A program made the translations under genes and the position numbers. The notes under the pieces were generated by a model, which saw nothing but the letters and a program-made list of their open reading frames with translations, had not been told where the DNA came from and searched no databases. A stretch of DNA of 64,000 nt from Eledone cirrhosa (Eukaryota): contig OZ024745.1 of assembly GCA_964016885.1 (NCBI GenBank), positions 118,296,001 to 118,360,000 of the forward strand, written 5' to 3'. This document shows, in pieces, positions 25,822 through 64,000 of this stretch; position 1 is the first letter of the stretch; the number at the start of each line of letters is the position of its first letter.

Positions 25822-27875
25822 CATTTGCACATGCGTGTGTGTGTGAATGTATTAGTGTTATCATCGTTTTCATCATCATCGTTTTAATGTCCACTTTCCT
25901 TGTCAGCAAAAGTAGAATGGGTCTTCATAGACCAAGTTAGTACTGAAGTGGGGTTACAAGCTAGGAGTCTGTTCATCTCGCTTGCATACACCTAGTAGAT
26001 CCTATAAAGTGGGAGCGGTGGTGCCATGAAAAGACATACCCAGTTCATCTGGTAAGGAGGTGGTTAGCATTAGGAAGGGCATCCAGCTATAGAAACCATA
26101 ACCATGCTAAACATGGAAGATATGGGCAAGCGAGATTGCTCTTATCTGTCTCGTCTTGTGATAAATCATCCATCCCATGCCAATGAGGAAGGATGATAGT
26201 TATTAAATATGCACATGTATCCGCCCACCCCACAAAAATGCATGTACATATATATATATATTCCTTGTGTATGAATGTGTGTGTGTGTGTGTGTGTGTGA
26301 CAACATATATAAGCACAAATGTGTACTGCTTATAACTGTAAATAAATAAACATGCACACAAACATATGCATGCATATTTAATAGATAAACTCTTCTCCTG
26401 CATAACACATTCATGCAAAATGTAGTTGAGTGAAACCCTATGAGATAATCATAGACCTAAGTGAAGAAGAGGAAGCTGCCTCATCAAGTTTGTAAATGCT
26501 ATGTCCATTAACAGATCTAAACATCTCCATTAGCTACAAACACACTAATCTGTAAATACAAATGTTAATCCTTTATCCAAATCAGAGGAAGATAAAAAAC
26601 ATCTGAAGAACTAAATACAGTGTGCATGTGTATGTGGTAGGCCACACCAGCAATATTCTCAACAACAACATTATACTATCAAGACAAAAATAAAGAATAT
26701 ATTTGATTGTTGTTGCTTTTGTTCTTGTTTATCATTTAGATGAATGAAGCAGAACCAGTAGAAGGTTGGATAAAATGTCTTGCAATATTTAGCTTTTGTT
26801 TCTTTACATTCTTTACCAAAGATCTTGACTTTGCCTTTTAATTCTCAGCTATGCCTTTCACCATTGAATTCTCAGAGCTGTTAGAGAGTAGGATGAAATG
26901 CCTTGAGCCATTTGTTCCAGTTCTCAGTGCTTTGATTTCATATCCAGCAGAGATCAACATTGCTTTCCTTCATTAAGGGTTGATAAAATAAAGCACCAGT
27001 CCAGAATATTAGAACATTGAACAAAATGCCATTCAACCTTTATTTTTTATTCAACACCTAGTTTAACACCACCACCTAATCCTTGGGTGTCTTTGGTAGG
27101 GTCCACACAGTTGCAACTGCTTGGGCTTGGTCTCTAGTTTGAGGATACCTTCCTTTAACTCCAACTAGTCTGAGAGTTCCTGAAAAGGATCATGGGTCAT
27201 GGCCACTGCTCTTCCTTTTTTGACTAAACAGTAAAAAAAAAAGAAACAAAAGTTTTCTGTGGTCAATAAAATAAGTACTAATCAAGTACCCGGTTGATGT
27301 AATCTCCTGTACCCCTTCTTCCTACAGATGTGCAACCTTATATGTAAAGGTGCAGTAAAGTGGGAAAAATGGAAGAGTGCCAGACATAGAGGAATTAGTT
27401 TGATCTCTATATGTTCTCAGTTCAAATTCTGACATTGTTTGTCATTCCTTAATAATTGCTTTTAGACCCAGTTCAACTCTGACTGAGCAGATCCTATTAT
27501 TAAAAGCACTCTGTGCATGTGTGTGTGTGCGTGCATGCGTGTATGTATGTGTACGTGTGTGTACATAAGTATGTATGCATGCATGTATGTACTTTCCATT
27601 ACAAATGATGTCAAAATGACAATAGAAAGAAAATATGAATGAAAAATTTATTCAAAATATAAATTTAAAAAGAAATCATTACAAAATATGAATAATGTAA
27701 TATTTGCCAATGATTAAATTTACAGCAGTAATGTATGAATATATTTGCACATACAACTGTGTGCCTGTGTACTTGTTTCATATGATGCTTGTGTGAAAGC
27801 ATTAAAAGAGTATAGCAATTACATTGTGAAGAGTCATTTTAGCAGGAGGTGTACAAAAAGCAAATCTTTGTACAA

Positions 27876-30800
27876 ATGACCATTCTATTATTTTGTATGT
27901 GCATCAGTAAATGTGAACATCATCATTGTCATCATCCAGCAGCCTCAGCCGAAATGGAATCAACAATTTCTCTCTCAGTGACCAGACCCTCACACTCCTC
28001 AAGCACTTCTCTCTCAGTGGCCAGACCCTCACACTCCTCAAGCACTTCTCTATCAGAGGCCAGACCCTCCAACTCCTCAAGCACTTCTCTCTCAGTGACC
28101 AGACCCTCACACTCCTCAAGCACTTCTCTCTCAGTGGCCAGACCCTCCAACTCCTCAAGCACTTCTCTCTCAGTGGCCAGACCCTCCAACTCCTCAAGCA
28201 CTTCTCTCTCAGTGGCCAGACCCTCCAACTCCTCAAGCACTTCTCTCTCAGTGGCCAGACCCTCCAACTCCTCAAGCACTTCTCTCTCAGTGGCCAGACC
28301 CTCCAACTCCTCAAGCACTTCTCTCTCAGTGGCCAGACCCTCCAACTCCTCAAGCACTTCTCTCTCAGTGGCCAGACCCTCCAACTCCTCAAGCACTTCT
28401 CTCTCAGTGGCCAGACCCTCCAACTCCTCAAGCACTTCTCTCTCAGTGGCCAGACCCTCCAACTCCTCAAGCACTTCTCTATCAGTGGCCAGACCCTCCA
28501 ACTCCTCAAGCACTTCTCTATCAGTGGCCAGACCCTCACACTCCTCAAGCACTTCTCTATCAGTGGCCAGACCCTCCAACTCCTCAAGCACTTCTCTCTC
28601 AGTGGCCAGACCCTCCAACTCCTCAAGCACTTCTCTCTCAGTGGCCAGACCCTCCAACTCCTCAAGCACTTCTCTCTCAGTGGCCAGACCCTCCAACTCC
28701 TCAAGCACTTCTCTCTCAGTGGCCAGACCCTCCAACTCCTCAAGCACTTCTCTCTCAGTGGCCAGACCCTCCAACTCCTCAAGCACTTCTCTATCAGTGG
28801 CCAGACCCTCCAACTCCTCAAGCACTTCTCTATCAGTGGCCAGACCCTCACACTCCTCAAGCACTTCTCTATCAGTGGCCAGACCCTCCAACTCCTCAAG
28901 CACTTCTCTCTCAGTGGCCAGACCCTCCAACTCCTCAAGCACTTCTCTCTCAGTGGCCAGACCCTCCAACTCCTCAAGCACTTCTCTCTCAGTGGCCAGA
29001 CCCTCCAACTCCTCAAGCACTTCTCTCTCAGTGGCCAGACCCTCCAACTCCTCAAGCACTTCTCTCTCAGTGGCCAGACCCTCCAACTCCTCAAGCACTT
29101 CTCTCTCAGTGGCCAGACCCTCCAACTCCTCAAGCACTTCTCTCTCAGTGGCCAGACCCTCCAACTCCTCAAGCACTTCTCTCTCAGTGGCCAGACCCTC
29201 CAACTCCTCAAGCACTTCTCTCTCAGTGGCCAGACCCTCCAACTCCTCAAGCACTTCTCTATCAGTGGCCAGACCCTCCAACTCCTCAAGCACTTCTCTA
29301 TCAGTGGCCAGACCCTCCAACTCCTCAAGCACTTCTCTATCAGTGGCCAGACCCTCACACTCCTCAAGCACTTCTCTCTCAGTGGCCAGACCCTCCAACT
29401 CCTCAAGCACTTCTCTATCAGTGGCCAGACCCTCCAACTCCTCAAGCACTTCTCTATCAGAGGCCAGACCCTCACACTCCTCAAGCACTTCTCTATCAGT
29501 GGCCAGACCCTCCAACTCCTCAAGCACTTCTCTCTCAGTGGCCAGACCCTCACACTCCTCAAGCACTTCTCTATCAGTGGCCAGACCCTCCAACTCCTCA
29601 AGCACTTCTCTATCAGTGGCCAGACCCTCCAACTCCTCAAGCACTTCTCTCTCAGTGGCCAGACCCTCCAACTCCTCAAGCACTTCTCTATCAGTGGCCA
29701 GACCCTCCAACTCCTCAAGCACTTCTCTATCAGAGGCCAGACCCTCACACTCCTCAAGCACTTCTCTATCAGTGGCCAGACCCTCACACTCCTCAAGCAC
29801 TTCTCTCTCAGTGGCCAGACCCTCCAACTCCTCAAGCACTTCTCTATCAGTGACCAGACCCTCCAACTCCTCAAGCACTTCTCTATCAGTGACCAGACCC
29901 TCACACTCCTCAAGCACTTCTCTATCAGTGACCAGACCCTCCAACTCCTCAAGCACTTCTCTATCAGTGACCAGACCCTCCAACTCCTCAAGCACTTCTC
30001 TCTCAGTGGCCAGACCCTCCAACTCCTCAAGCACTTCTCTCTCAGTGGCCAGACCCTCCAACTCCTCAAGCACTTCTCTATCAGTGGCCAGACCCTCCAA
30101 CTCCTCAAGCACTTCTCTATCAGTGGCCAGACCCTCACACTCCTCAAGCACTTCTCTCTCAGTGACCAGACCCTCACACTCCTCAAGCACTTCTCTATCA
30201 GAGGCCAGACCCTCCAACTCCTCAAGCACTTCTCTATCAGAGGCCAGACCCTCACACTCCTCAAGCACTTCTCTATCAGTGGCCAGACCCTCACACTCCT
30301 CAAGCACTTCTCTATCAGTGGCCAGACCCTCACACTCCTCAAGCACTTCTCTATCAGTGGCCAGACCCTCCCACTCCTCAAGCACTTCTCTATCAGTGGC
30401 CAGACCCTCCAACTCCTCAAGCACTTCTCTATCAGTGGCCAGACCCTCACACTCCTCAAGCACTTCTCTCTCAGTGACCAGACCCTCACACTCCTCAAGC
30501 ACTTCTCTATCAGAGGCCAGACCCTCCAACTCCTCAAGCACTTCTCTATCAGAGGCCAGACCCTCACACTCCTCAAGCACTTCTCTATCAGTGGCCAGAC
30601 CCTCACACTCCTCAAGCACTTCTCTATCAGTGGCCAGACCCTCACACTCCTCAAGCACTTCTCTATCAGTGGCCAGACCCTCCAACTCCTCAAGCACTTC
30701 TCTCTCAGTGGCCAGACCCTCCAACTCCTCAAGCACTTCTCTATCAGTGACCAGACCCTCACACTCCTCAAGCACTTCTCTATCAGTGGCCAGACCCTCC

Positions 30801-32132
30801 AACTCCTCAAGCACTTCTCTCTCAGTGGCCAGACCCTCACACTCCTCAAGCACTTCTCTATCAGTGGCCAGACCCTCCAACTCCTCAAGCACTTCTCTCT
30901 CAGTGGCCAGACCCTCACACTCCTCAAGCACTTCTCTCTCAGTGACCAGACCCTCACACTCCTCAAGCACTTCTCTATCAGTGGCCAGACCCTCCAACTC
31001 CTCAAGCACTTCTCTCTCAGTGGCCAGACCCTCACACTCCTCAAGCACTTCTCTATCAGAGGCCAGACCCTCACACTCCTCAAGCACTTCTCTATCAGTG
31101 GCCAGACCCTCCAACTCCTCAAGCACTTCTCTCTCAGTGGCCAGACCCTCCAACTCCTCAAGCACTTCTCTCTCAGTGACCAGACCCTCACACTCCTCAA
31201 GCACTTCTCTCTCAGTGACCAGACCCTCACACTCCTCAAGCACTTCTCTATCAGTGGCCAGACCCTCCAACTCCTCAAGCACTTCTCTCTCAGTGGCCAG
31301 ACCCTCACACTCCTCAAGCACTTCTCTATCAGAGGCCAGACCCTCCAACTCCTCAAGCACTTCTCTCTCAGTGGCCAGACCCTCCAACTCCTCAAGCACT
31401 TCTCTCTCAGTGGCCAGACCCTCCAACTCCTCAAGCACTTCTCTATCAGTGGCCAGACCCTCCAACTCCTCAAGCACTTCTCTATCAGAGGCCAGACCCT
31501 CACACTCCTCAAGCACTTCTCTATCAGTGGCCAGACCCTCCAACTCCTCAAGCACTTCTCTCTCAGTGGCCAGACCCTCCAACTCCTCAAGCACTTCTCT
31601 CTCAGTGGCCAGACCCTCACACTCCTCAAGCACTTCTCTATCAGTGGCCAGACCCTCCAACTCCTCAAGCACTTCTCTATCAGTGACCAGACCCTCACAC
31701 TCCTCAAGCACTTCTCTATCAGTGGCCAGACCCTCCAACTCCTCAAGCACTTCTCTCTCAGTGGCCAGACCCTCACACTCCTCAAGCACTTCTCTATCAG
31801 AGGCCAGACCCTCCAACTCCTCAAGCACTTCTCTCTCAGTGGCCAGACCCTCCAACTCCTCAAGCACTTCTCTCTCAGTGGCCAGACCCTCACACTCCTC
31901 AAGCACTTCTCTATCAGTGACCAGACCCTCACACTCCTCAAGCACTTCTCTATCAGTGACCAGACCCTCACACTTCTCTATCAGTGGCCAGACCCTCCAA
32001 CTCCTCAAGCACTTCTCTATCAGTGGCCAGACCCTCACACTCCTCAAGCACTTCTCTATCAGTGACCAGACCCTCACACTCCTCAAGTACTTCTCTATCA
32101 GTGACCAGACCCTCACACTTCTCTATCAGTGA
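27876..32132 (+). CDS. hypothetical Ser-rich mucin-like tandem-repeat ORF (SLSVARPSNSSST)n
   Basis: Stop-free frame with a short hydrophobic N-terminus (MTILLFCMCISKC) and one N-x-S sequon in most units. The openness may simply reflect the 39-bp unit. Confidence 0.2.
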   Translation: MTILLFCMCISKCEHHHCHHPAASAEMESTISLSVTRPSHSSSTSLSVARPSHSSSTSLSEARPSNSSSTSLSVTRPSHSSSTSLSVARPSNSSSTSLSVARPSNSSSTSLSVARPSNSSSTSLSVARPSNSSSTSLSVARPSNSSSTSLSVARPSNSSSTSLSVARPSNSSSTSLSVARPSNSSSTSLSVARPSNSSSTSLSVARPSNSSSTSLSVARPSHSSSTSLSVARPSNSSSTSLSVARPSNSSSTSLSVARPSNSSSTSLSVARPSNSSSTSLSVARPSNSSSTSLSVARPSNSSSTSLSVARPSNSSSTSLSVARPSHSSSTSLSVARPSNSSSTSLSVARPSNSSSTSLSVARPSNSSSTSLSVARPSNSSSTSLSVARPSNSSSTSLSVARPSNSSSTSLSVARPSNSSSTSLSVARPSNSSSTSLSVARPSNSSSTSLSVARPSNSSSTSLSVARPSNSSSTSLSVARPSNSSSTSLSVARPSHSSSTSLSVARPSNSSSTSLSVARPSNSSSTSLSEARPSHSSSTSLSVARPSNSSSTSLSVARPSHSSSTSLSVARPSNSSSTSLSVARPSNSSSTSLSVARPSNSSSTSLSVARPSNSSSTSLSEARPSHSSSTSLSVARPSHSSSTSLSVARPSNSSSTSLSVTRPSNSSSTSLSVTRPSHSSSTSLSVTRPSNSSSTSLSVTRPSNSSSTSLSVARPSNSSSTSLSVARPSNSSSTSLSVARPSNSSSTSLSVARPSHSSSTSLSVTRPSHSSSTSLSEARPSNSSSTSLSEARPSHSSSTSLSVARPSHSSSTSLSVARPSHSSSTSLSVARPSHSSSTSLSVARPSNSSSTSLSVARPSHSSSTSLSVTRPSHSSSTSLSEARPSNSSSTSLSEARPSHSSSTSLSVARPSHSSSTSLSVARPSHSSSTSLSVARPSNSSSTSLSVARPSNSSSTSLSVTRPSHSSSTSLSVARPSNSSSTSLSVARPSHSSSTSLSVARPSNSSSTSLSVARPSHSSSTSLSVTRPSHSSSTSLSVARPSNSSSTSLSVARPSHSSSTSLSEARPSHSSSTSLSVARPSNSSSTSLSVARPSNSSSTSLSVTRPSHSSSTSLSVTRPSHSSSTSLSVARPSNSSSTSLSVARPSHSSSTSLSEARPSNSSSTSLSVARPSNSSSTSLSVARPSNSSSTSLSVARPSNSSSTSLSEARPSHSSSTSLSVARPSNSSSTSLSVARPSNSSSTSLSVARPSHSSSTSLSVARPSNSSSTSLSVTRPSHSSSTSLSVARPSNSSSTSLSVARPSHSSSTSLSEARPSNSSSTSLSVARPSNSSSTSLSVARPSHSSSTSLSVTRPSHSSSTSLSVTRPSHFSISGQTLQLLKHFSISGQTLTLLKHFSISDQTLTLLKYFSISDQTLTLLYQ

Positions 32133-32308
32133 CCAGACCCTCACACTCATCAAGTACTTCTCTATCAGTGACCAGACCCTCACACTCCTCAAGTACTTCT
32201 CTATCAGTGACCAGACCCTCACACTTCTCTATCAGAGGCCAGACCCTCACATTTCTCTCTCAGTGACCAGACCCTCACACTTCTCTATCAGTGACCAGAC
32301 CCTCCAAC
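27967..32308. repeat. 39-bp minisatellite, ~110 copies
   Basis: Unit cacttctct[c/a]tcag[t/a]g[g/a]ccagaccctc[ca/ac]actcctcaag. Shortened 28-bp units appear at the 3' end. Confidence 0.98.
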
Positions 32309-32332
32309 GTTCTAGCCAATCAGTATAGAGAA

Positions 32333-39896: not shown

Positions 39897-39964
<68 letters not shown>

Positions 39965-39967
<3 letters not shown>

Positions 39968-40633
39968 TAAAATAACAGATTAAAGTTTAAGCAAAGAATC
40001 GCTGTTTTCACCCTTAACGGGATCTTCTGAAACTAACAAAGTCAATCTGTGAACGCAGAAGTGAATATTTAAAAAAACGTTGCAACCGGAGGAAGACAGG
40101 AAGACGATACTTTGGTTCGTGGAAACGTTCGCTGGCAAAGAACGGGAAAAAACGAGTATAATACATCATTATTTAGAGCAGTGAAAAACAATTACACGCT
40201 AAGACAAAACCACGTTTATGGTATAAAAGAAGTCGTAGACTAATATTCTATTAGGTGGTTCATAGAGACGTTCTCTGGCAATGAACGAAAAAAATGAAGA
40301 TAATACGTCATATGTGGAACGGGGAGAACAAATGCACGCAAAGACAAAACCATGTAAATGGTATAACTGAAGTCGTAGACTAAATTCTAACTAGGAAACC
40401 GAAAGATTCTCAGCTTCAGAGTTAAGAATAAAGTAAATAAAATACAGAGGTAAATGAAATTAAATAAATACATACACGCATCCATATACGTACATACACA
40501 AGCATACGCGAAAACACTCGCCATGAAAAAAAAACAAAAAAAAACGCGCGCACATACAGAACCCACGCAACGCCTGTACCTGCACACATACGAATGTATA
40601 CACCAAATACACATAAAAATATATATCAAATAT
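39965..40633 (-). mobile_element. probable Penelope 3' pLTR segment containing a ~142-bp tandem duplication
   Basis: Diverged direct repeats at ~40115-40256 and ~40257-40395. It ends in a hammerhead-like motif and (TA)n, and its composition continues that of 43955-44350. Confidence 0.45.
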
Positions 40634-40690
40634 ATAAATTAATAAAAACAATGAATAAAAACAAAGAAACAGTTCCTTATATTAAAAAAT

Positions 40691-40828
40691 TCATCATTTT
40701 ACGATCGTTTCTAGGATATATATGTGTGTGTTGGTATGTATATCATATAGATCTATGTAAAAGTTTTACAAACTATCAGAGGGAATATACATACCTACAC
40801 ATATATATATGCTGTCTTCAGAAATAAT
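40691..40828 (-). ncRNA. type I hammerhead ribozyme (inverted pLTR copy)
   Basis: Minus strand reads attattt-CTGAAGA-[long stem II]-GAAAC-GATC-GTA-aaatgat, with a palindromic ACGATCGT stem III. Confidence 0.7.
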
Positions 40829-40930
40829 TGTTTCTACTTTTGGCACAAGGCCAGCAATTACCCAGTACATTACTGGTACTTTATTTTATCGACCCCGTAA
40901 GGATGAAAGGCAAAGTTAACCTCGGCGGGA
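40829..40930 (-). mobile_element. 5'-truncated SINE inserted into the left pLTR
   Basis: Absent from the right arm (gaaataatgatatt uninterrupted there), with an aat duplication. Confidence 0.9.
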
Positions 40931-41197
40931 ATGATATTTGTTTATTGAAAAAACCCAACAAAGATTTAATATAATAGGTCTGTTTAGGAACAGGTTTTGA
41001 ATTGACCAATAGAAAAGTAGTAAGTGGTCAAGTTGATAGAATAGTAGTAGTAGAAATTTAATTTAGGGGTAGAGGAATGTAGACTTCAGTTTTGAATGGA
41101 AAGAGTATTTTGAATGAAAAGATTACTTTGGGGATGAAAATAGGTCAAGCCGGTGAAAGGTACACGAAAATTTGATGTTATTAAAGAATAATGCTAA

Positions 41198-42884
41198 TTT
41201 TATCACGCACGCTAGACAAACACTACTGGTATTTCAGAAGGAATACTGGACCAGAAATACATATAATAATCTATTCGACATTACTATGGGCTCTAGTGAT
41301 TTTGCCCAAATAACCGATCTTGTGGGCCTCTTTCTTCTATTTAACATAGATGCTTCTTTTCCCCACCTTAAAGATGGTTTATATCGTGATGACTGTCTTC
41401 TTCTTTCCACTAACCTTAGCCTATCAGAAATTGAAAAAAATAAGAAATTTATTAGAATTTTCCTCAAAGACTATTATAGTCTCACTATTACATTCAAAAA
41501 CACAAGTAAAATAGTTAATTTCCTTGATATAACTTTAGACTTATCTACGGGTATCTACCAACCTTACCATAAACCTAACCAAAACTTACATTACATACAC
41601 ACAAAATCTAATCACCCTAAATCTATCCTTAAAAACCTAGCATATAATATCTCACTCAGAATTTCTAACCTTTCATCTAACCAAGATGTATTCGATAAAA
41701 ATGCGACCTTTTATAACGAAGCTTTAACTAGAAGCGGCCACAAAAACAAATTAGTATATATACCTTGTACCAAAAATACTACAAACATACCACCCAATAT
41801 TACCAACAAACACCAAATGAAATATACACACCTAAATACCACTCACACTATACCCCAAAATACCAACTTAAAACTTAATTTCTCTACCTCTTCTAATATA
41901 CAATATAATAACTTTCAAAAAACCATTCATCCTAATATTCCAATATATGTTAATAACATTACTAACAAAATTCCTAATAATCAGGCTAAAACACCTAAAT
42001 CAGTGAATCTAACTAAAAATATGTGTAATAAAATCACTAATACTAATTCTCTTAGTAAACATCAGGATACATCATATACTAATAAAAAACAACATCGAAA
42101 CCATAATAGACGAGTTACTTGGTATAATGCTCCATTTAATCTACAAATTAAAGATAATATACCTAAAAATCTTTTTACTATCCTAGAGAAAAACTTCCCG
42201 CCAAACCATAAATACAATCAAATTTTAAATAGATCAACGGTCAAATTCTCCTACTCAACAACCAAAAATATACAACAAAATATAAGTGCCTACAATGCAT
42301 ATAAATGTAAAAAAACCATGAATATACCACCAACACATCAAACTAACCATAATACTAAAATAAACCACAGCAAACCACCATCTCATTCACATACAACAAG
42401 TCGAGAAAATTCCACACCTAATTTGACTAACTCCTCTGATATAACATTCATGAAAGGTTGTAACTGTAGAAACAAAGCAAATTGCCCATTAAAAGGAAAT
42501 TGCCTTATTAATAACATAGTATATAAATGTAAAATTAGCACTAAGGACTCCACTTATTCATATATAGGAGCTACTTCTAACCAATTTAAAGTAAGATTTA
42601 ATACCCAGAAACACAGTTTTAAAAATGCTGCATTAGCTAATACAACATCCTTAGCTGAAATAATTAATAATTATAGAAAAAAGAATATCGATTATAACTT
42701 GACCTGGAGTGTGCTCAAAAGGGCCACCCCTTATCAAAATAATAGATATGAATGTAGATTATGTTCCCAGGAACTTTTTGAAATAATGAAATCTAAGGAT
42801 AACCTATTAAATAAGCGACAAGAATTAATTATATCATGTAATCATAGAATTAGAAAAACTTTCAAATATTATAAACCTAATTAA
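41198..42884 (+). CDS. Penelope-like RT C-terminal half plus GIY-YIG endonuclease (5'-truncated ORF)
   Basis: LFDITMGSSDFAQITDLVGL, GLYRDD, VNFLDITLDL..YQPYHKPN, HTKSNHP, CNCRNKANCPLKGNCL..IVYKCKI..YIGATSNQFKVRF..HSF, CRLC..E..LNKRQE..SCNH. No internal stop codons. Confidence 0.93.
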
Positions 42885-43577
42885 TATACACTTATATTTT
42901 ACAAATTATTATAATAAATTTTTTTTTAAATTAGTTAACCTATAATTAATATTCTACTACTAAGAACTGCATAATTTTATTTCCCTTTTACTAAAACTTA
43001 TACCAATAAGTATACATATAAACTATTTTAATTTCCTGTTATGAATCTAAATTCCTTACAATCTATATAAGTTTGTTACTTCTCACTATTACATTTATCC
43101 CCCACCCCAAAAAATTTTTTTTTTCTTTTTCTTCGATTCTTTCACAACATTCTTTAATAACATCTAACTCTTATTTATCATATCTTTATGAATTAATATA
43201 AATTTATCCCTATAAATATACCTATCAATTAAATTAATTTAATTTCTTTTTATAGATCTATATTCCTTATGTTTTAAATAAGATTGATATTTTTCTCTAA
43301 CACATTTATAGTAAAATTTTATTCTCCTTAGATTTTAATATTAGCATTATTCTTTAATAACATCAAATTTTCGTGTACCTTTCACCGGCTTGACCTATTT
43401 TCATCCCCAAAGTAATCTTTTCATTCAAAATACTCTTTCCATTCAAAACTGAAGTCTACATTCCTCTACCCCTAAATTAAATTTCTACTTACTACTTTTC
43501 TATCGGTTAATTCAAAACCTGTTCCCAAACAGACCTATTATATTAAATCTTTGTTGGTTTTTTTCAATAAACAAATA

Positions 43578-43717
43578 TCATTATTTCTGAAGACAGCATA
43601 TATATATGTGTAGGTATGTATATTCCCTCTGATAGTTTGTAAAACTTTTACATAGATCTATATGATATACATACCAACACACACATATATATCCTAGAAA
43701 CGATTGTAAAATGATGA
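43578..43717 (+). ncRNA. type I hammerhead ribozyme with extended stem II (3' pLTR)
   Basis: 9-bp stem I tcattattt/aaatgatga, CTGAAGA at 43587, GAAA at 43697, GTA cleavage triplet at 43706-43708. Confidence 0.75.
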
Positions 43718-43905
43718 ATTTTTTAATATAAGGAACTGTTTCTTTGTTTTTATTCATTGTTTTTATTAATTTATCTTGGCTCTGTTTTCCTGTGTTTTTC
43801 ATCAAAAACATTTTGAATACATCTCTTTTCATGATATTTGGATTACATTGAGTTCTTCATATGGATTGGACACTACCGTATATTTTGGTAGATTTATCTA
43901 CATAT

Positions 43906-43954
<49 letters not shown>

Positions 43955-43963
<9 letters not shown>

Positions 43964-44765
43964 CGTGTATGCATATAATCAAATAAACGTATATAAATAA
44001 ATAAATACGTTTATATAACAAGCGCACACACATACCTACATGTAAATACACTTATGTTCGGAGACGTACGTCAACCAAAACATGAAGTACACATATACAC
44101 ACACCTTACATACGTACTAACCCGCATACTCACACAGACGCAAAACTCACGTATACACAACCAAAAGTATATGTACCAGAAAAAATAATATATACGCCAT
44201 AACATATACAATCAAATATACGTACAAGAAAGTATACGTACCTTCACAAAACGTGAAGGTAATATATACTTACCTATACAAATAAGTAATGGTATAAACA
44301 TAACATATACTTAGCTACCACATCAAGACGTAAAATATCCGCGTATAGTTCGTACTATCCGTTAGGGTATAATGTGGGGCTGTAATACAGGAATGTTTTG
44401 TGCAATTTATGTTTACAAGCCGAAATTGCCTCAGAATTTTTGTTTAAGATGTGGTCTTTGGCGTAGAGTATTTCCAGGCCCTCAGCGGCGCAGAGGTCAC
44501 ATGGTCTTTTATTTCCGGTATACGATCTAGCCCTAGCTAGGATCTCCCAGTGTAACTTATATTGGGTGTGGTTATCTTTTAGACTCCAGATATAAGCTGA
44601 AAGTGACGTCATATTCCTTCTTAAAGGGTAACGAAAAGAATGGGTATGCATGTAAAGACGCTGCTTGAATCTATTGGCGGTTAACCCTATGTAGGCCCTT
44701 CGGGACGTGGGTGTTTCAACCTTACATTTGTAGACAATATTACTAGAGAGGCATTTCCCGGATAG
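43955..44765 (-). mobile_element. second Penelope-like element: GIY-YIG fragment plus 3' region
   Basis: GKCLSSNIVYKCKVETPTSRRAYIGLTANRFKQRLYMHTHSF..WEILARARSY..CDLCAAEGLEIL..LNKNSE..CKH. Confidence 0.88.
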
Positions 44766-44769
44766 GAGG

Positions 44770-44946
44770 ATATGTGACAGCTGGAGGGAAATGAGGCAAG
44801 CATGCTCTGTTGGATGTGCAGTGTCAATATGCGTGAACGACCCAGTATGAATGTGTCGAGAGAAACTGTGTCTGAGAGAGGAGATTCCCGTCTAAACCCA
44901 TGCTAGCGTGGAAGGAAGATAGACGTTAAACGATGATGATGATGAT
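44770..44946 (+). mobile_element. internally deleted RTE fragment with 3' tail
   Basis: LEGNEASMLCWMCSV followed by cccatgctagcgtggaag..gacgttaaacgatgatgat. Confidence 0.7.
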
Positions 44947-45081: not shown

Positions 45082-46524
45082 TCATCATCATCATCATCAT
45101 CGTTTAACGTCCATCTTCCACGGTAGCATAGGTTTGGACGGGAATTTTCCCACTTGAGGCAAGATTGGTTGTCTTGCTCGTATAGGACTGTCTGGCGGGT
45201 TTTGTACGGCTGGATGCCCTTCCTAACACCAACCACGTTTACAGTGTGGACTGGGAGTTTTTTACCGTGTTACCTACACGGCCACATTACAGTGTGGACT
45301 GTGTCTTTTTTTGTCGTGACACCTACACGATCTCATTTGTTTCGGACTGGATGTTGTGGTACCAACATAACTTTACATTGAAAGGGGTGGTGTGGATGGG
45401 GTGGGGGTAGTGAGACGGGGGTGTATTTTGTTAGAGGTGCCTACTGACTGTAGTAGGTTTCGCTTTGTACTTAGGCAAGGCGGGTCTACTGTATTACTGT
45501 GTAGCGCCAAAGATCTCGGTCCAGTGACATTGTCTTGGAGAGGTGTAAGTGTGTGAGGTCGGAATTTATCAAGTCGTCCCAGGTTTTTCTGGGCCTGCCT
45601 ACTCTGTAGCTTCCTTCTATTTTTACCGCCCTGCACTTTTTTATACAGCTGTCGTATTTCATGTGCATCACGTGACCGTACCAACGTAGTCTTCTCTCGA
45701 GTAAACAACATCTGATCCCTCTTATTCCTAATTTCTCCCTTAGTTCATTTATGTTTTGCCGTTCACGTCTATTACTACTACCCATTCAGCGAAGCATGCA
45801 AGCTTTGTTCCTCTCCAGTCTGCGTGTATCCTCTGCACACAATGCCCAGGTCTCACTGCCATGTAACATTGTTGTTCGTATGCAGGCATCATATAGTCTG
45901 CCTTTCATTTTTAGAGAGAACCCTTTAGCAGCCAATAGTGGTATAAGCTCTCTGAACTTTTTCCATCCCGTTCTGACTCTAGCTACTGTACTTTCAGAGC
46001 ATCCTCCACCACTGCTGATTTTGTCACCCAGGTAATGGAAGGTGTCCACTATTTCTATAGAACCATCTGTGCAATGGAATGAGCTAGTATTCTGTGGGCA
46101 CTTGCTGCTACTTATTGCACCAGAGCACCGGCCACATATAAAATCTATATTCTTAGTTAGCTTACCTGTGATCCCACTACATCTTTTATGCACCCATACT
46201 TTACACTTGGGACATAAAATGGAGTTTCTGCCTACTCCCTTCCTACACACTGAGCATGGCCATTTCCTAGATGGGACTGGTGCCCTATTTTCCTTCCTAC
46301 GAACTAGAACTTTAGTCTTAGACAGGTTAATTTTAAGGTCTTTTGATTCTAGGCCATGCTTCCATGTTTGGAATTTCTTCTCTAGTTTGGCCATTGATTC
46401 AGCTATTAGCGTTAGATCCTCTGCGTATAGGAGTTCCCATGGGCAGCCGGTCTTGAACTCCTCTGTTATAGCCTGAAGGGCAATAATAAATAGGAGGGGG
46501 CTAAGGACAGAGCCCTGATGAACA

Positions 46525-46526
<2 letters not shown>
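45082..46526 (-). mobile_element. RTE-clade LINE, 5'-truncated (RT domain to 3' tail)
   Basis: GVHQGSVLSPLLF, ELLYAEDL, Cys-rich insert, FHYLGDKISSGGG, LHGSETWA, RRLRWYGHV, GRPRKTW, (GAT)n tail. An in-frame stop lies at ~45786. Confidence 0.95.
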
Positions 46527-46555
<29 letters not shown>

Positions 46556-46563
<8 letters not shown>

Positions 46564-46643
46564 AATGCAAGGAAATAATAGACAAAAATATACATATTCT
46601 AAATATTATATTTTTGTCTATTATTTCCTTGCATTTATAATTT
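46556..46643. repeat. perfect 37-bp inverted repeat with 14-nt spacer
   Basis: aaattataaatgcaaggaaataatagacaaaaatata / tatatttttgtctattatttccttgcatttataattt. Confidence 0.9.
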
Positions 46644-60559: not shown

Positions 60560-61270
60560 TGTGTTATCTCTTTCTCTTAATTTCGAGTATATTTTTTTGA
60601 CCGGCCACCTTCCTGGTGGCAAGGTTGTAAAAGAAAAGAAATTGTCATCCCTTGAATCGCAAGAATGTTTTGCAAATTTTGAAGGTGCCTGCTATCACGG
60701 CCATTTGTAGACTATAAATTAGGGAGCTGCGCTCTTTGTCCGCAAATCCAAGTTCAGTCATACTTTGGTCCAAGCGGGTTGGTATATAACCCGTAGCTCC
60801 AATAATGATGGGTATGAAGCTAAAGGTGTATCTTGGATACTGGATTTGTAAACTCCTCATCAATGGTCCGTAGATGTCCTCCTTCTCCTGTATTTTTCTG
60901 ACAACGTTTACATTAAGTGGGCAGCTGATCTCCACAACAGAAAACGTTTTCAATGTGTGGTCCCAAACAACAATATCAGGCCGGTTGTGCTTTAATTTGG
61001 TGGCAGTTTTTATTTTCAGGTTCCACTAGTATTCCTTCGTGCCATCTGTCTCAATATATTCTTCCTCGTTTGTTGTTAATTTTGTTTTCCGAAGTGCGTT
61101 CCAGATGGTTCTAGCTATCCCATCGTGTCTCATGGGGAGGTAGTAGCGAGATGACATTCTTTCGCAGCTGGCAACAATGTAGCTTACATCCTCGATCTTT
61201 GTTTTACATAGCCTACATTTATTGTCAGCTGATGGCCCTCCCCTTTTGTGCAGCAGATATTTGGTAGGGA
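60560..61270 (-). mobile_element. R4-clade non-LTR retrotransposon 3' end (zinc knuckle + PD-(D/E)XK endonuclease)
   Basis: CRLCKTKIEDVSYIVASC..RHDGIA..*WNLKIKTATKLKHNRPDIVVWD..VVEISCPLNVNVVRKIQEKEDIYGPL..IPIIIGATG..KICKTFL. Flanked by (TATG)n. Confidence 0.88.
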
Positions 61271-62289
61271 GTATGTATGTATGTATGTAAGTATGTATGC
61301 TTGTTTGTAAATGCACACATACATGACTGAGGAAGACCATCATTGACTATAAAGTCAATATGACCCAGGTAGAGCTTTAGATCCAATAAGGCTAGCACAA
61401 TACCTTACAGACCACCTCCTCCCAATTGGTATAATCCAAAGTCTGAGGCAAGATATCTATTGTCAATAAAGGTGACAGGCATAGGAGTGTGGGAATGTCA
61501 TGATCTTCAGCTGGCATTGAAGATACTCAAAATATTGGAGAGCATTTTATATCAAAGTAACCTTCTCCTTAAGACATCCTTTTATGAAAGTTAAGGGGTG
61601 TCTCATTACCAGTGTATTTGCAATACACCTGACACCAACCCTGAATTTCTAAGTTCTTCCATACTTAAGGATGTAAATAAATATTTACATTTGTACACAT
61701 TTGTACACATTTGTCTACATAAGCATTGAAACATATGTAAGTATGAATATGACCCACACTCTACTAGAATAAACAGTCCGATTCCAAAGAAGTCATGAAA
61801 GGTTCAAAACATAAATACACTTGAATTTAGGAAGGCTGAGTAGTTAGTGAATAGGATTCACAATCATGAGGTTGTGAGTTTGATTCCCAGACTGGTTGAT
61901 GTGTTATGTCCTTGAGCAAGACACTTTATTTCACGTTGCTCCTTCTACCTGGAGTTGTGACTGATAGATAGTATTAGTAATTGGAAAGACCAATGGAAAC
62001 ATTGTTTCCTCGGTTTGATTTTGATGAAAGTCAATTGACTCCTTAGGAACAATACTGCTCCAATTTAAATACAAAGTACCAAAAGAAAAAAAAATACAAA
62101 AACCCTCAAAATGACCAATCTAGAGCACAGTTGCGTATTCCATATAACATTTATATATCATCATCATTTTTACATAGACTTTTCCATTTTGGCATGGGTT
62201 GGATGGGACTTTATGGGGTACTGTTTTACAGTCAGATGCACTTACAACATACAAGGAAATGGTGGACCTATTCTAAACCAGATATGTAT

Positions 62290-63304: not shown

Positions 63305-64000
63305 GATAGAGGAAACTATAGATGTATAAAGCTGATGGACCAGGTCATGAAAGTAACAGAAAGAGTTATAGCATAGTTGATTAGGGACCAGATAAAACTA
63401 AATGAGATGCAATTTGGGTTTGTACCAGGAAAAGGCACCGCTGATGCCCTTGTGAGGCAGTTACAGGAAAAGTACCTAGCTAAAAGTAAGCTGCTATACC
63501 TGGCATTCGTCGATCTGGAAAAAGCCTTCGGCACAGACCCCGTGCTATAATCTGGTGGGCTCTTAGAAAATTAGGAGTAGATAAATGGCTTGTGAAGGCT
63601 GTACAAGACATGTATAGAGGAGCAGTCAGCAAAGTTAGGGTTAGCAATGACTATAGCGAAGAATTTAGCATACAGGTCGGTGTCCACCAGGGCTCTATTC
63701 TTAGCCCTTTCCTGTTCATTATAGTTTTGCAGGCAATAACGGAGGAGTTTAACACTGGATGCCCATGGGATCTCATATATGCAGATGATCTTGCACTTAT
63801 AGCTGAATCTATGGTGGAACTAGAGAAGAAATTCCAAAACATGGAAGCACTGACTAGAAAGAAAGGGTCTCAAAGTCAAGCTGACAAAGACTAAGGTTCT
63901 TGTAAGTAGACGAGAAAACATAACCCAGATCCCCTCAAGGAAATGGCCTTGCTCAGTATGTAGGAAAGGTATAGGTAGGAACTCCATCCTCTGCCCCATA
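63305..64000 (+). mobile_element. RTE LINE reverse transcriptase region (frameshifted; runs off window)
   Basis: NYRCIKLMDQVMKV, MQFGFVPGKGT, LAFVDLEKAF, GVHQGSILSPFLF, LIYADDL, KWPCSVCRKG. Confidence 0.93.

Follow-up and report, generated by a model that had tools for sequence, protein, structure and literature searches.

The closest described systems are the hammerhead ribozymes located in the pseudo-LTRs (pLTRs) of Penelope-like elements (PLEs). In the rows of File S2 of Craig et al. 2021 (PMC8557442), the Hydra clade has approximately 12-26 nt between the two halves of the core (approximately 23 nt in Hydra-1_Obim), the longest row of any clade is that of PLE-X1_sMoe (approximately 54 nt), and a U-U or U-C mismatch adjoins the core in 15 of the 26 Hydra rows. 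The minimal metazoan PLE hammerhead described in Cervera 2014 (PMC4209133) is characterized by a 6-8 bp helix II in which the G10.1-C11.1 pair is preceded by a bulged base, and U3-A8 is a core variant published there. Concerning function, uncut RNA has been described as the main template of the Anolis Poseidon element PAc, with a protein-assisted hammerhead (Frangieh et al. 2024, PMC11167929), and an internal promoter has been reported for Penelope of Drosophila virilis (Schostak et al. 2008, PMC2377424). No 100-nt stem II in a PLE hammerhead was found in the literature searched, and Lunse et al. 2017 (PMC5785218) or the supplements of PMC4209133 may hold such cases. The "long helix II" of PMC13725137 was considered as a precedent and rejected, as the term means 6 bp in that source.

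In the present study, a type I hammerhead was located at 43578-43717, in the pLTR of a Hydra-clade PLE, within the window, i.e. the whole 64-kb stretch of DNA under analysis (Table 1). The initial annotation, made from the sequence alone, had listed the parts of this motif, including a stem II spanning 43594-43696, and every part was found at the place it gave; its identification of a Penelope-like pLTR and of a type I hammerhead with an atypically long stem II was likewise correct. The core order CUGANGA ... GAAA ... UH is present and is kept across families, stem III consists of an A-U and a C-G pair closing GAUU, and the predicted cut is after A43708 of GUA. The fold of 43570-43725 gave z = -3.9, with none of 200 shuffles equally stable. 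A relaxed scan of both strands of the window (stem I of at least 6 bp, arm of at most 200 nt) returned 2 matches only, namely this motif and its inverted copy at 40821-40700. The expectation that the motif escapes standard models was borne out by Rfam, whose hammerhead models had no match in the 64-kb window at E<=1 or in 43500-43800 at E<=10; the other Rfam results were only low-complexity miRNA matches under the gathering scores.

Table 1. Coordinates of the hammerhead, its host element, and adjoining features in the window
Feature	Position	Strand	Remarks
Stem I, 5' strand	43578-43586	+	Contains the 5'-end hot spot 43579-43583 (mode A43580, TCA+1TT) and the SINE hot spot
Core CUGAAGA	43587-43593	+	C3-G8, replaced in sister family B by U3-A8
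Long stem II arm, 103 nt	43594-43696	+	C.A adjoining the core, C.C at the fourth pair
Apical module GAU/AUC and UGUA/UACA with internal loop	43631-43658	+	Near-invariant in A1, A2, A3, and B
GAAA (43697-43700), 2-bp stem III, loop GAUU, GUA	43697-43708	+	Family loop is GAUC, palindromic
Stem I, 3' strand	43709-43717	+	9 bp with 43578-43586, one G-U
AATAAA	43566-43571	+	Start hot spot follows directly downstream; shared by A1, A2, A3, and B
Predicted competing hairpin	43708-43763	+	43708-43719 pairs with 43752-43763; would take the stem I 3' strand
One-sided tail	43775-43905	+	Copies stop close to 43774 or 43905, followed by (TA)n
5'-truncated Hydra-type ORF	41203-42884	+	End of RT, CxCX5C linker CNCRNKANC, GIY-YIG endonuclease, CxxC, CxH; open to stop
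Inverted 5'-truncated pLTR arm with second hammerhead	40634-41202	-	Core at 40821, predicted cut after 40700
5'-truncated SINE-like repeat in stem I of the inverted copy	40829-40929	-	3-nt duplication; leaves a 7-bp stem I
Second young Hydra family	44355-44891 (-), 43950-44354, 39960-40630		Split by the insertion

The stop-to-stop frame of the host element (41157-42884, of which the element's own part starts near 41203) contains CNCRNKANC, ECRLC, and SCNH without CCHH, fitting a Hydra-clade GIY-YIG endonuclease (EN) located C-terminally, and the reverse transcriptase (RT) motifs match by eye the alignment excerpts of PMC8557442, so that clade placement stands on the motif level. At its 5' side this ORF ends before the RWK/DKT region; sister family B carries RMRW and DKT, and Pfam gave no match for either ORF. 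At one family B locus (L124) the layout is pLTR-ORF-pLTR, with the cut site approximately 290 nt before the ATG. The Hydra-clade traits of (TA)n insertion, an inverted truncated pLTR, and a one-sided tail are all found here; the tail ended at the short position in 69 and at the long position in 31 of 100 copies. A non-LTR retrozyme was ruled out, since the motif lies behind an RT-EN ORF and the copies are dispersed or inverted; family D may differ. This family (L125, L127, L128, and L129) has a 95-nt arm, the canonical G10.1-C11.1, and a 4-bp stem I, and occurs in direct repeats at a spacing of approximately 700 nt. The DNA examined there contains no Hydra ORF, and the family is possibly non-autonomous; a different RT ORF lies upstream of its motif in L125.

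The insertion itself interrupts a second young Hydra family in its 3' region, splitting it at a (TA)n run. In 14 of the 15 listed variants of that family's hammerhead-like motif (about 39990-40035, minus strand), CUGAAGA is replaced by CAGAAGA; the motif is also without a proper stem III, so that its ribozyme may have been inactive while the family spread. Elsewhere in the window, a 4.3-kb array of a 30-bp C-rich unit at 27843-32328, open in several frames on both strands, is likely a minisatellite, and other RT-like ORF fragments at 45786-46598 (-), 63490-63894 (+), and 60645-61346 (-) are of non-LTR type by eye.

Several findings bear on the long arm and on its role. First, an arm of approximately 100 nt is a lineage trait common to several diverged families. 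The core followed by 85-115 nt and GAAACGATCGTA has 5,173 exact genomic matches (control, 1), and the same pattern with an arm of 6-36 nt has 52, some of which are internal deletions of long arms; other palindromic loops with a long arm account for 6,305 further matches (control, 403), all these counts being confined to arms shorter than 37 nt or of 85 to at most 118 nt. In the DNA search, 40 of 1,170 candidates were scored, and all were 97-100% identical, the arm included. Among 98 distinct sampled motifs, 96 have an arm of 95-110 nt (commonest length, 101 nt), and 62 have the arm base CAGC/CCUA, which is the source of the C-A and C-C mismatches. The long-armed motifs of this genome range from 90 to 107 nt in the arm, with the tip conserved, and the fourth pair is non-canonical in 10 of 11 families, being C.C in five and G-U in five. 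In other words, the "~100-nt stem II insertion" of the initial annotation is not peculiar to one copy but is inherited by many families, and the C-A and C-C mismatches, which it had read as signs of a possibly impaired copy, are a family-wide feature and not damage.

Other variation was observed alongside. Arm length varies widely among the hammerhead-like motifs of this genome, and motifs with a stem II of 12-36 nt were met by chance at L070, L076, L080, L086, and L090. Some subfamilies (L099, L118, and L140) contain the 5' half of the motif a second time, in degenerate form, approximately 225 nt upstream. AATAAA, which is located upstream of stem I in families A and B, occurs approximately 0-8 nt downstream of the cut site in the long-arm families E, F, G, and I and in one further pattern match, and was seen after the cut triplet at L301, L302, L304, L312, L319, and L324. 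Families E and G (L301:1501-1609 and L324:1501-1609) have a well-folded 90-nt arm and are almost without a canonical stem I; their post-cut bases are complementary to a stretch within the arm (E) or to a downstream stretch (G), which hints at another topology.

Second, the arm is kept as a structure. RNAalifold on a MAFFT alignment of 23 copies of A1, A2, A3, and B recovered stem I and the tip and not the basal arm helix, because indels misalign the arm; therefore, the basal helix was examined by ungapped pairing anchored on the core halves, using a single copy per family for 11 families selected by eye. At pairs 2-11 of these families, 89 of 110 positions were paired, compared with 50.5 +/- 6.3 when the 3' strands were permuted (none of 20,000 permutations reached 89) and 28-47 when the strands were slid. 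The arms of the 11 families are 48-83% identical to A1, and arm folding gave z <= -2.3 in nine of them; families H and I folded no better than shuffles. In A1 itself, nine of pairs 2-11 are paired and the first position is C.A. Outside the arm, both sides have changed at 4 of the 9 pairs of stem I (MAFFT alignment, 23 sequences of A1, A2, A3, and B), C3-G8 of the core is replaced by U3-A8 in family B, and the loop III palindrome differs in sequence between families yet remains palindromic. The core nucleotides, for which the initial annotation had proposed a comparison among family copies, are intact across families. The tip, GAU/AUC and UGUA/UACA, is near-invariant in the 23 copies of A1, A2, A3, and B, and the apical module therefore provides no covariation. 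Both-side changes were found at only 5 of the 20 named pairs, a value reached by 26 of 500 shuffles, and variation within the young A1 family was too low to show covariation. Contiguous stem I does not exceed 3 bp in families E, G, H, and I and measures 9-11 bp in intact copies of family B. A Hydra ORF lies upstream on the same strand in A1, A2, A3, B, E, and F; families C, D, G, H, and I were not tied to any Hydra ORF. The invariant tip is likely a binding site or a promoter element and not a part of catalysis.

Third, the active fold is predicted to be a minor state of the monomer. With the core constrained, as the initial annotation had suggested, the active fold was obtained at -33.0 kcal/mol; the unconstrained minimum (-33.5 kcal/mol) differs, with CUG paired with CAG. 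The active monomer fold comprises 0.7% (family) to 1.8% (43578-43717 copy) of the predicted ensemble and approximately none of it when 57 nt more are included downstream, and the predicted dimer fold is approximately 10 kcal/mol below two monomers. The duplex of the competing hairpin (-7.3 to -8.3, vs -6.5 for the full stem I and -1.9 for a 7-bp stem I) is predicted in A1, A2, A3, and B and is absent in E and F; it is kept through one-sided changes only. The 43578-43717 copy also has a lesion of its own, a C>T change at 43705 in the dimer palindrome, where C accounts for 513,876 of 515,283 of the summed contig depth (run X1). The palindromic feature formed by 15.2-16.2 and loop 3 is present in the family (ACGAUCGU) and broken by this change, and the palindrome duplex is -10.0 kcal/mol in the family vs -5.8 with T43705, which still pairs with two G-U. 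The initial annotation had described stem III and the loop GAUU properly for this copy and had not recognised the lesion. Both pLTR arms of the insertion share an extra AT, and C>T at 43705 occurs in the right arm only; the left, inverted arm has an intact palindrome and a SINE in stem I. The 43578-43717 copy is probably weaker than its family, owing to the palindrome mutation and to the inverted arm 2.7 kb away, and a transcript of the whole locus could pair the two pLTR arms.

Fourth, the genomic copies preserve the positions at which element copies begin. The 5' ends were mapped in the first 100 consecutive copies of 1,808 retrieved with an anchor placed downstream of the cut site, and stops at 43487-43509, where the reference has a 21-nt deletion, were counted as extending upstream. 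Twenty-six ends, representing 23 insertion events, are located at 43579-43583 in stem I, with 4 more up to 43589, whereas the 113 nt of 43591-43703 hold 22 ends and 43704-43714 hold 4, corresponding to an approximately 25-fold pile-up per base in stem I. Of the remaining copies, 9 have a SINE at 43580, 2 end at 43564-43566, and 33 reach further upstream. None of the 100 copies begins at the cut site 43709, i.e. there is no genomic footprint of cleavage at 43708/9, and 96 cross the cut-site region. Because no copy begins at 43709 and 26 begin in stem I, the templates were likely uncut. The most frequent end, A43580, falls on the A of TCATT, a sequence similar to the initiator consensus, and an added G, as expected from copying of a cap, precedes only 6 of the 26 ends. 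The start hot spot was also observed in A2 (5 of 9 copies), with 0 of 8 in B, 0 of 9 in F, and 1 of 7 in E, all of these being small samples; a DPE-like AGACGT lies at +28 in A2, a weaker ACACGT in B, and none in A1. We consider 43579-43583 the likely RNA start.

The same site is a target of a tRNA-like SINE. There are 433 exact SINE junctions at the stem I site genome-wide, and SINE insertions mapped to the element lie at 43580 in 14 of 19 cases, at 43346 in two, and at 43537 in none, the loci being biased to the motif. Among 30 SINE loci (L201-L230), of which 23 have native upstream sequence by the rule of the script, the truncations differ and the duplications range from approximately 3 to 18 nt, and the insertions at stem I are therefore independent. 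Some of the SINEs are tandem, and insertion restores a stem I of 7 bp. Specificity of the SINE for hammerheads was rejected, as its 71,835 exact genome-wide matches show insertion at ATTAT in many contexts. The hot spot could be caused by open chromatin where transcription starts or by nicking through the endonuclease of the element.

Such nicking leads to a different explanation of the 5' ends, in which the pile-up at 43579-43583 reflects a DNA nicking or joining hot spot, or else the fragment left downstream when RNA is cleaved at a poly(A) site following AATAAA (43566-43571). We regard it as unlikely, despite the coincidence of the SINE insertions with exactly this site, the 5'-ATT-3' cut made by the Anolis protein in its own pLTR (PMC11167929), the position of AATAAA 8 nt upstream in A1, A2, and A3, and the indistinct cap-derived G. 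Eight of the 26 ends abut unrelated or microsatellite flanks, the partner arms opposite the ends terminate at no fixed position, which is what run-off at a constant RNA end would produce, and the mode falls on the A of an initiator-like TCA. Moreover, 8 nt is a short spacing for poly(A) cleavage.

Herein, we propose, as a fairly probable reading, that the motif is a PLE type I hammerhead with a conserved stem II rod of approximately 100 nt. The monomer is predicted to be mostly inactive, with cleavage expected only from the dimer or with protein help, and the motif probably constitutes the 5' end of the element RNA. Transcription would start at A43580, from an internal pLTR promoter, and the resulting RNA would be limited to a 7-bp stem I and a 2-bp stem III and would include the competing hairpin downstream, so that the ribozyme would stay uncut. 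Reverse transcription would start internally, at the ends near 43774 or 43905, and pass over the motif to the RNA start. Read-through RNA of tandem copies would instead contain the full stem I of 9-10 bp and would offer the ACGAUCGU palindrome a partner, making cleavage possible. A lineage-wide version of this proposal is possible and put forward only tentatively: stem II might be a functional domain with a conserved tip, the non-canonical fourth pair might replace the loop II contact, and the hammerhead might be a switch, with the RNA starting in stem I as the uncut template and the read-through RNA cleaving as a dimer.

Alternatively, the hammerhead may be vestigial or optional, with selection acting on the rod and tip for a non-catalytic task (binding of the element protein, export, or promoter function) and the core carried along. 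The missing cleavage footprint in the 100 copies, the mismatch adjoining the core in most families, and a tip that is invariant where the flanks diverge are consistent with this explanation; catalytic mutants of the Anolis element still insert in vitro (PMC11167929), and an intact core may be dispensable because the neighbouring young Hydra family has spread with CAGAAGA in 14 of its 15 listed variants. Nevertheless, the core and the GAAAC-palindrome-GUH segment are intact across families whose arms are only approximately 50% identical, loop III stays palindromic through change, and C3-G8 switches to U3-A8 as a pair, so that we consider a vestigial core rather unlikely.

It is also conceivable, although quite unlikely, that the arm contains a retained spliceosomal intron of 84 nt, from AG|GTATGT at 43614 to CCTAG| at 43697, whose splicing removes or reshapes stem II. 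A donor-like GTATGT or GTAAAT and a YAG before AAAC are found in A1, A2, A3, B, and F, a branch-like TACCAAC lies approximately 25 nt before the AG, and in Penelope a 75-nt intron follows 46 nt after the start and adjoins the hammerhead (PMC2377424). However, the AG is absent in families C and D and in one F variant, there is no pyrimidine tract, and the spliced form is without a good stem II by eye. The spliced junction was found in none of the 52 short-arm genomic motifs, which is weak counter-evidence because PLEs retain introns. Three contig sets from one sample, of unrecorded kind, contained no intron-like joint or start/end pile-up, and say nothing on splicing or cleavage. Finally, the arm as an accidental insertion in one copy, inactivated by the basal mismatches, is extremely improbable, despite AT/AC microsatellite-like sequence in the arm, as arm and mismatches are common to thousands of copies and many families and the pattern counts refute it.

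Because surveys of hammerheads limit stem II to a few tens of bases, they overlook a class with more than 10,000 matches to the motif in a single genome, and Rfam misses it too. Moreover, the genomic copies record the start points of templates and their passage over the cut site, which bears on the question of why PLEs keep hammerheads. The natural variants, including C.A, U-A (found in family A3), and G-C at the core base, U3-A8, and the CAGAAGA family, are ready-made comparisons for one cleavage experiment.

Compared with known systems, the motif shares with the Hydra-clade hammerheads of PLEs with a C-terminal EN (EN+) its position behind the ORF, type I topology, CUGANGA/GAAA core, and short near-palindromic stem III, and also the mismatch at the core, (TA)n targets, and an inverted truncated pLTR (PMC8557442). 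In contrast to the Hydra hammerheads listed in that source (<= 26 nt), its arm of approximately 100 nt is roughly four times longer. The pLTR location, palindromic loop 3, predicted dimer dependence, and U3-A8 variant are shared with the PLE hammerheads of Cervera 2014 (PMC4209133), whereas the rod of approximately 30-35 bp and the C.A at 10.1-11.1, with G-C in family D only, depart from the minimal type described there. Similar to PAc (PMC11167929), the element has a one-sided tail delimited by two probable internal RT start sites, a likely uncut template, and no ends at the cut site; it belongs to another clade, its tail is approximately 130 nt vs 30-40 in PAc, and its ORF does not start in stem II (in family B, it starts approximately 290 nt downstream). 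Like Penelope (PMC2377424), the element has a likely start in the pLTR near the hammerhead, and family A2 has its DPE-like AGACGT at +28; unlike in Penelope, a promoter and an intron are only putative here, and A1 is without a DPE-like word at that spacing. In terms of the sources cited, the motif belongs with the PLE pLTR hammerheads (PMC4209133, PMC6765202), minus the traits of a short helix II and G10.1-C11.1.
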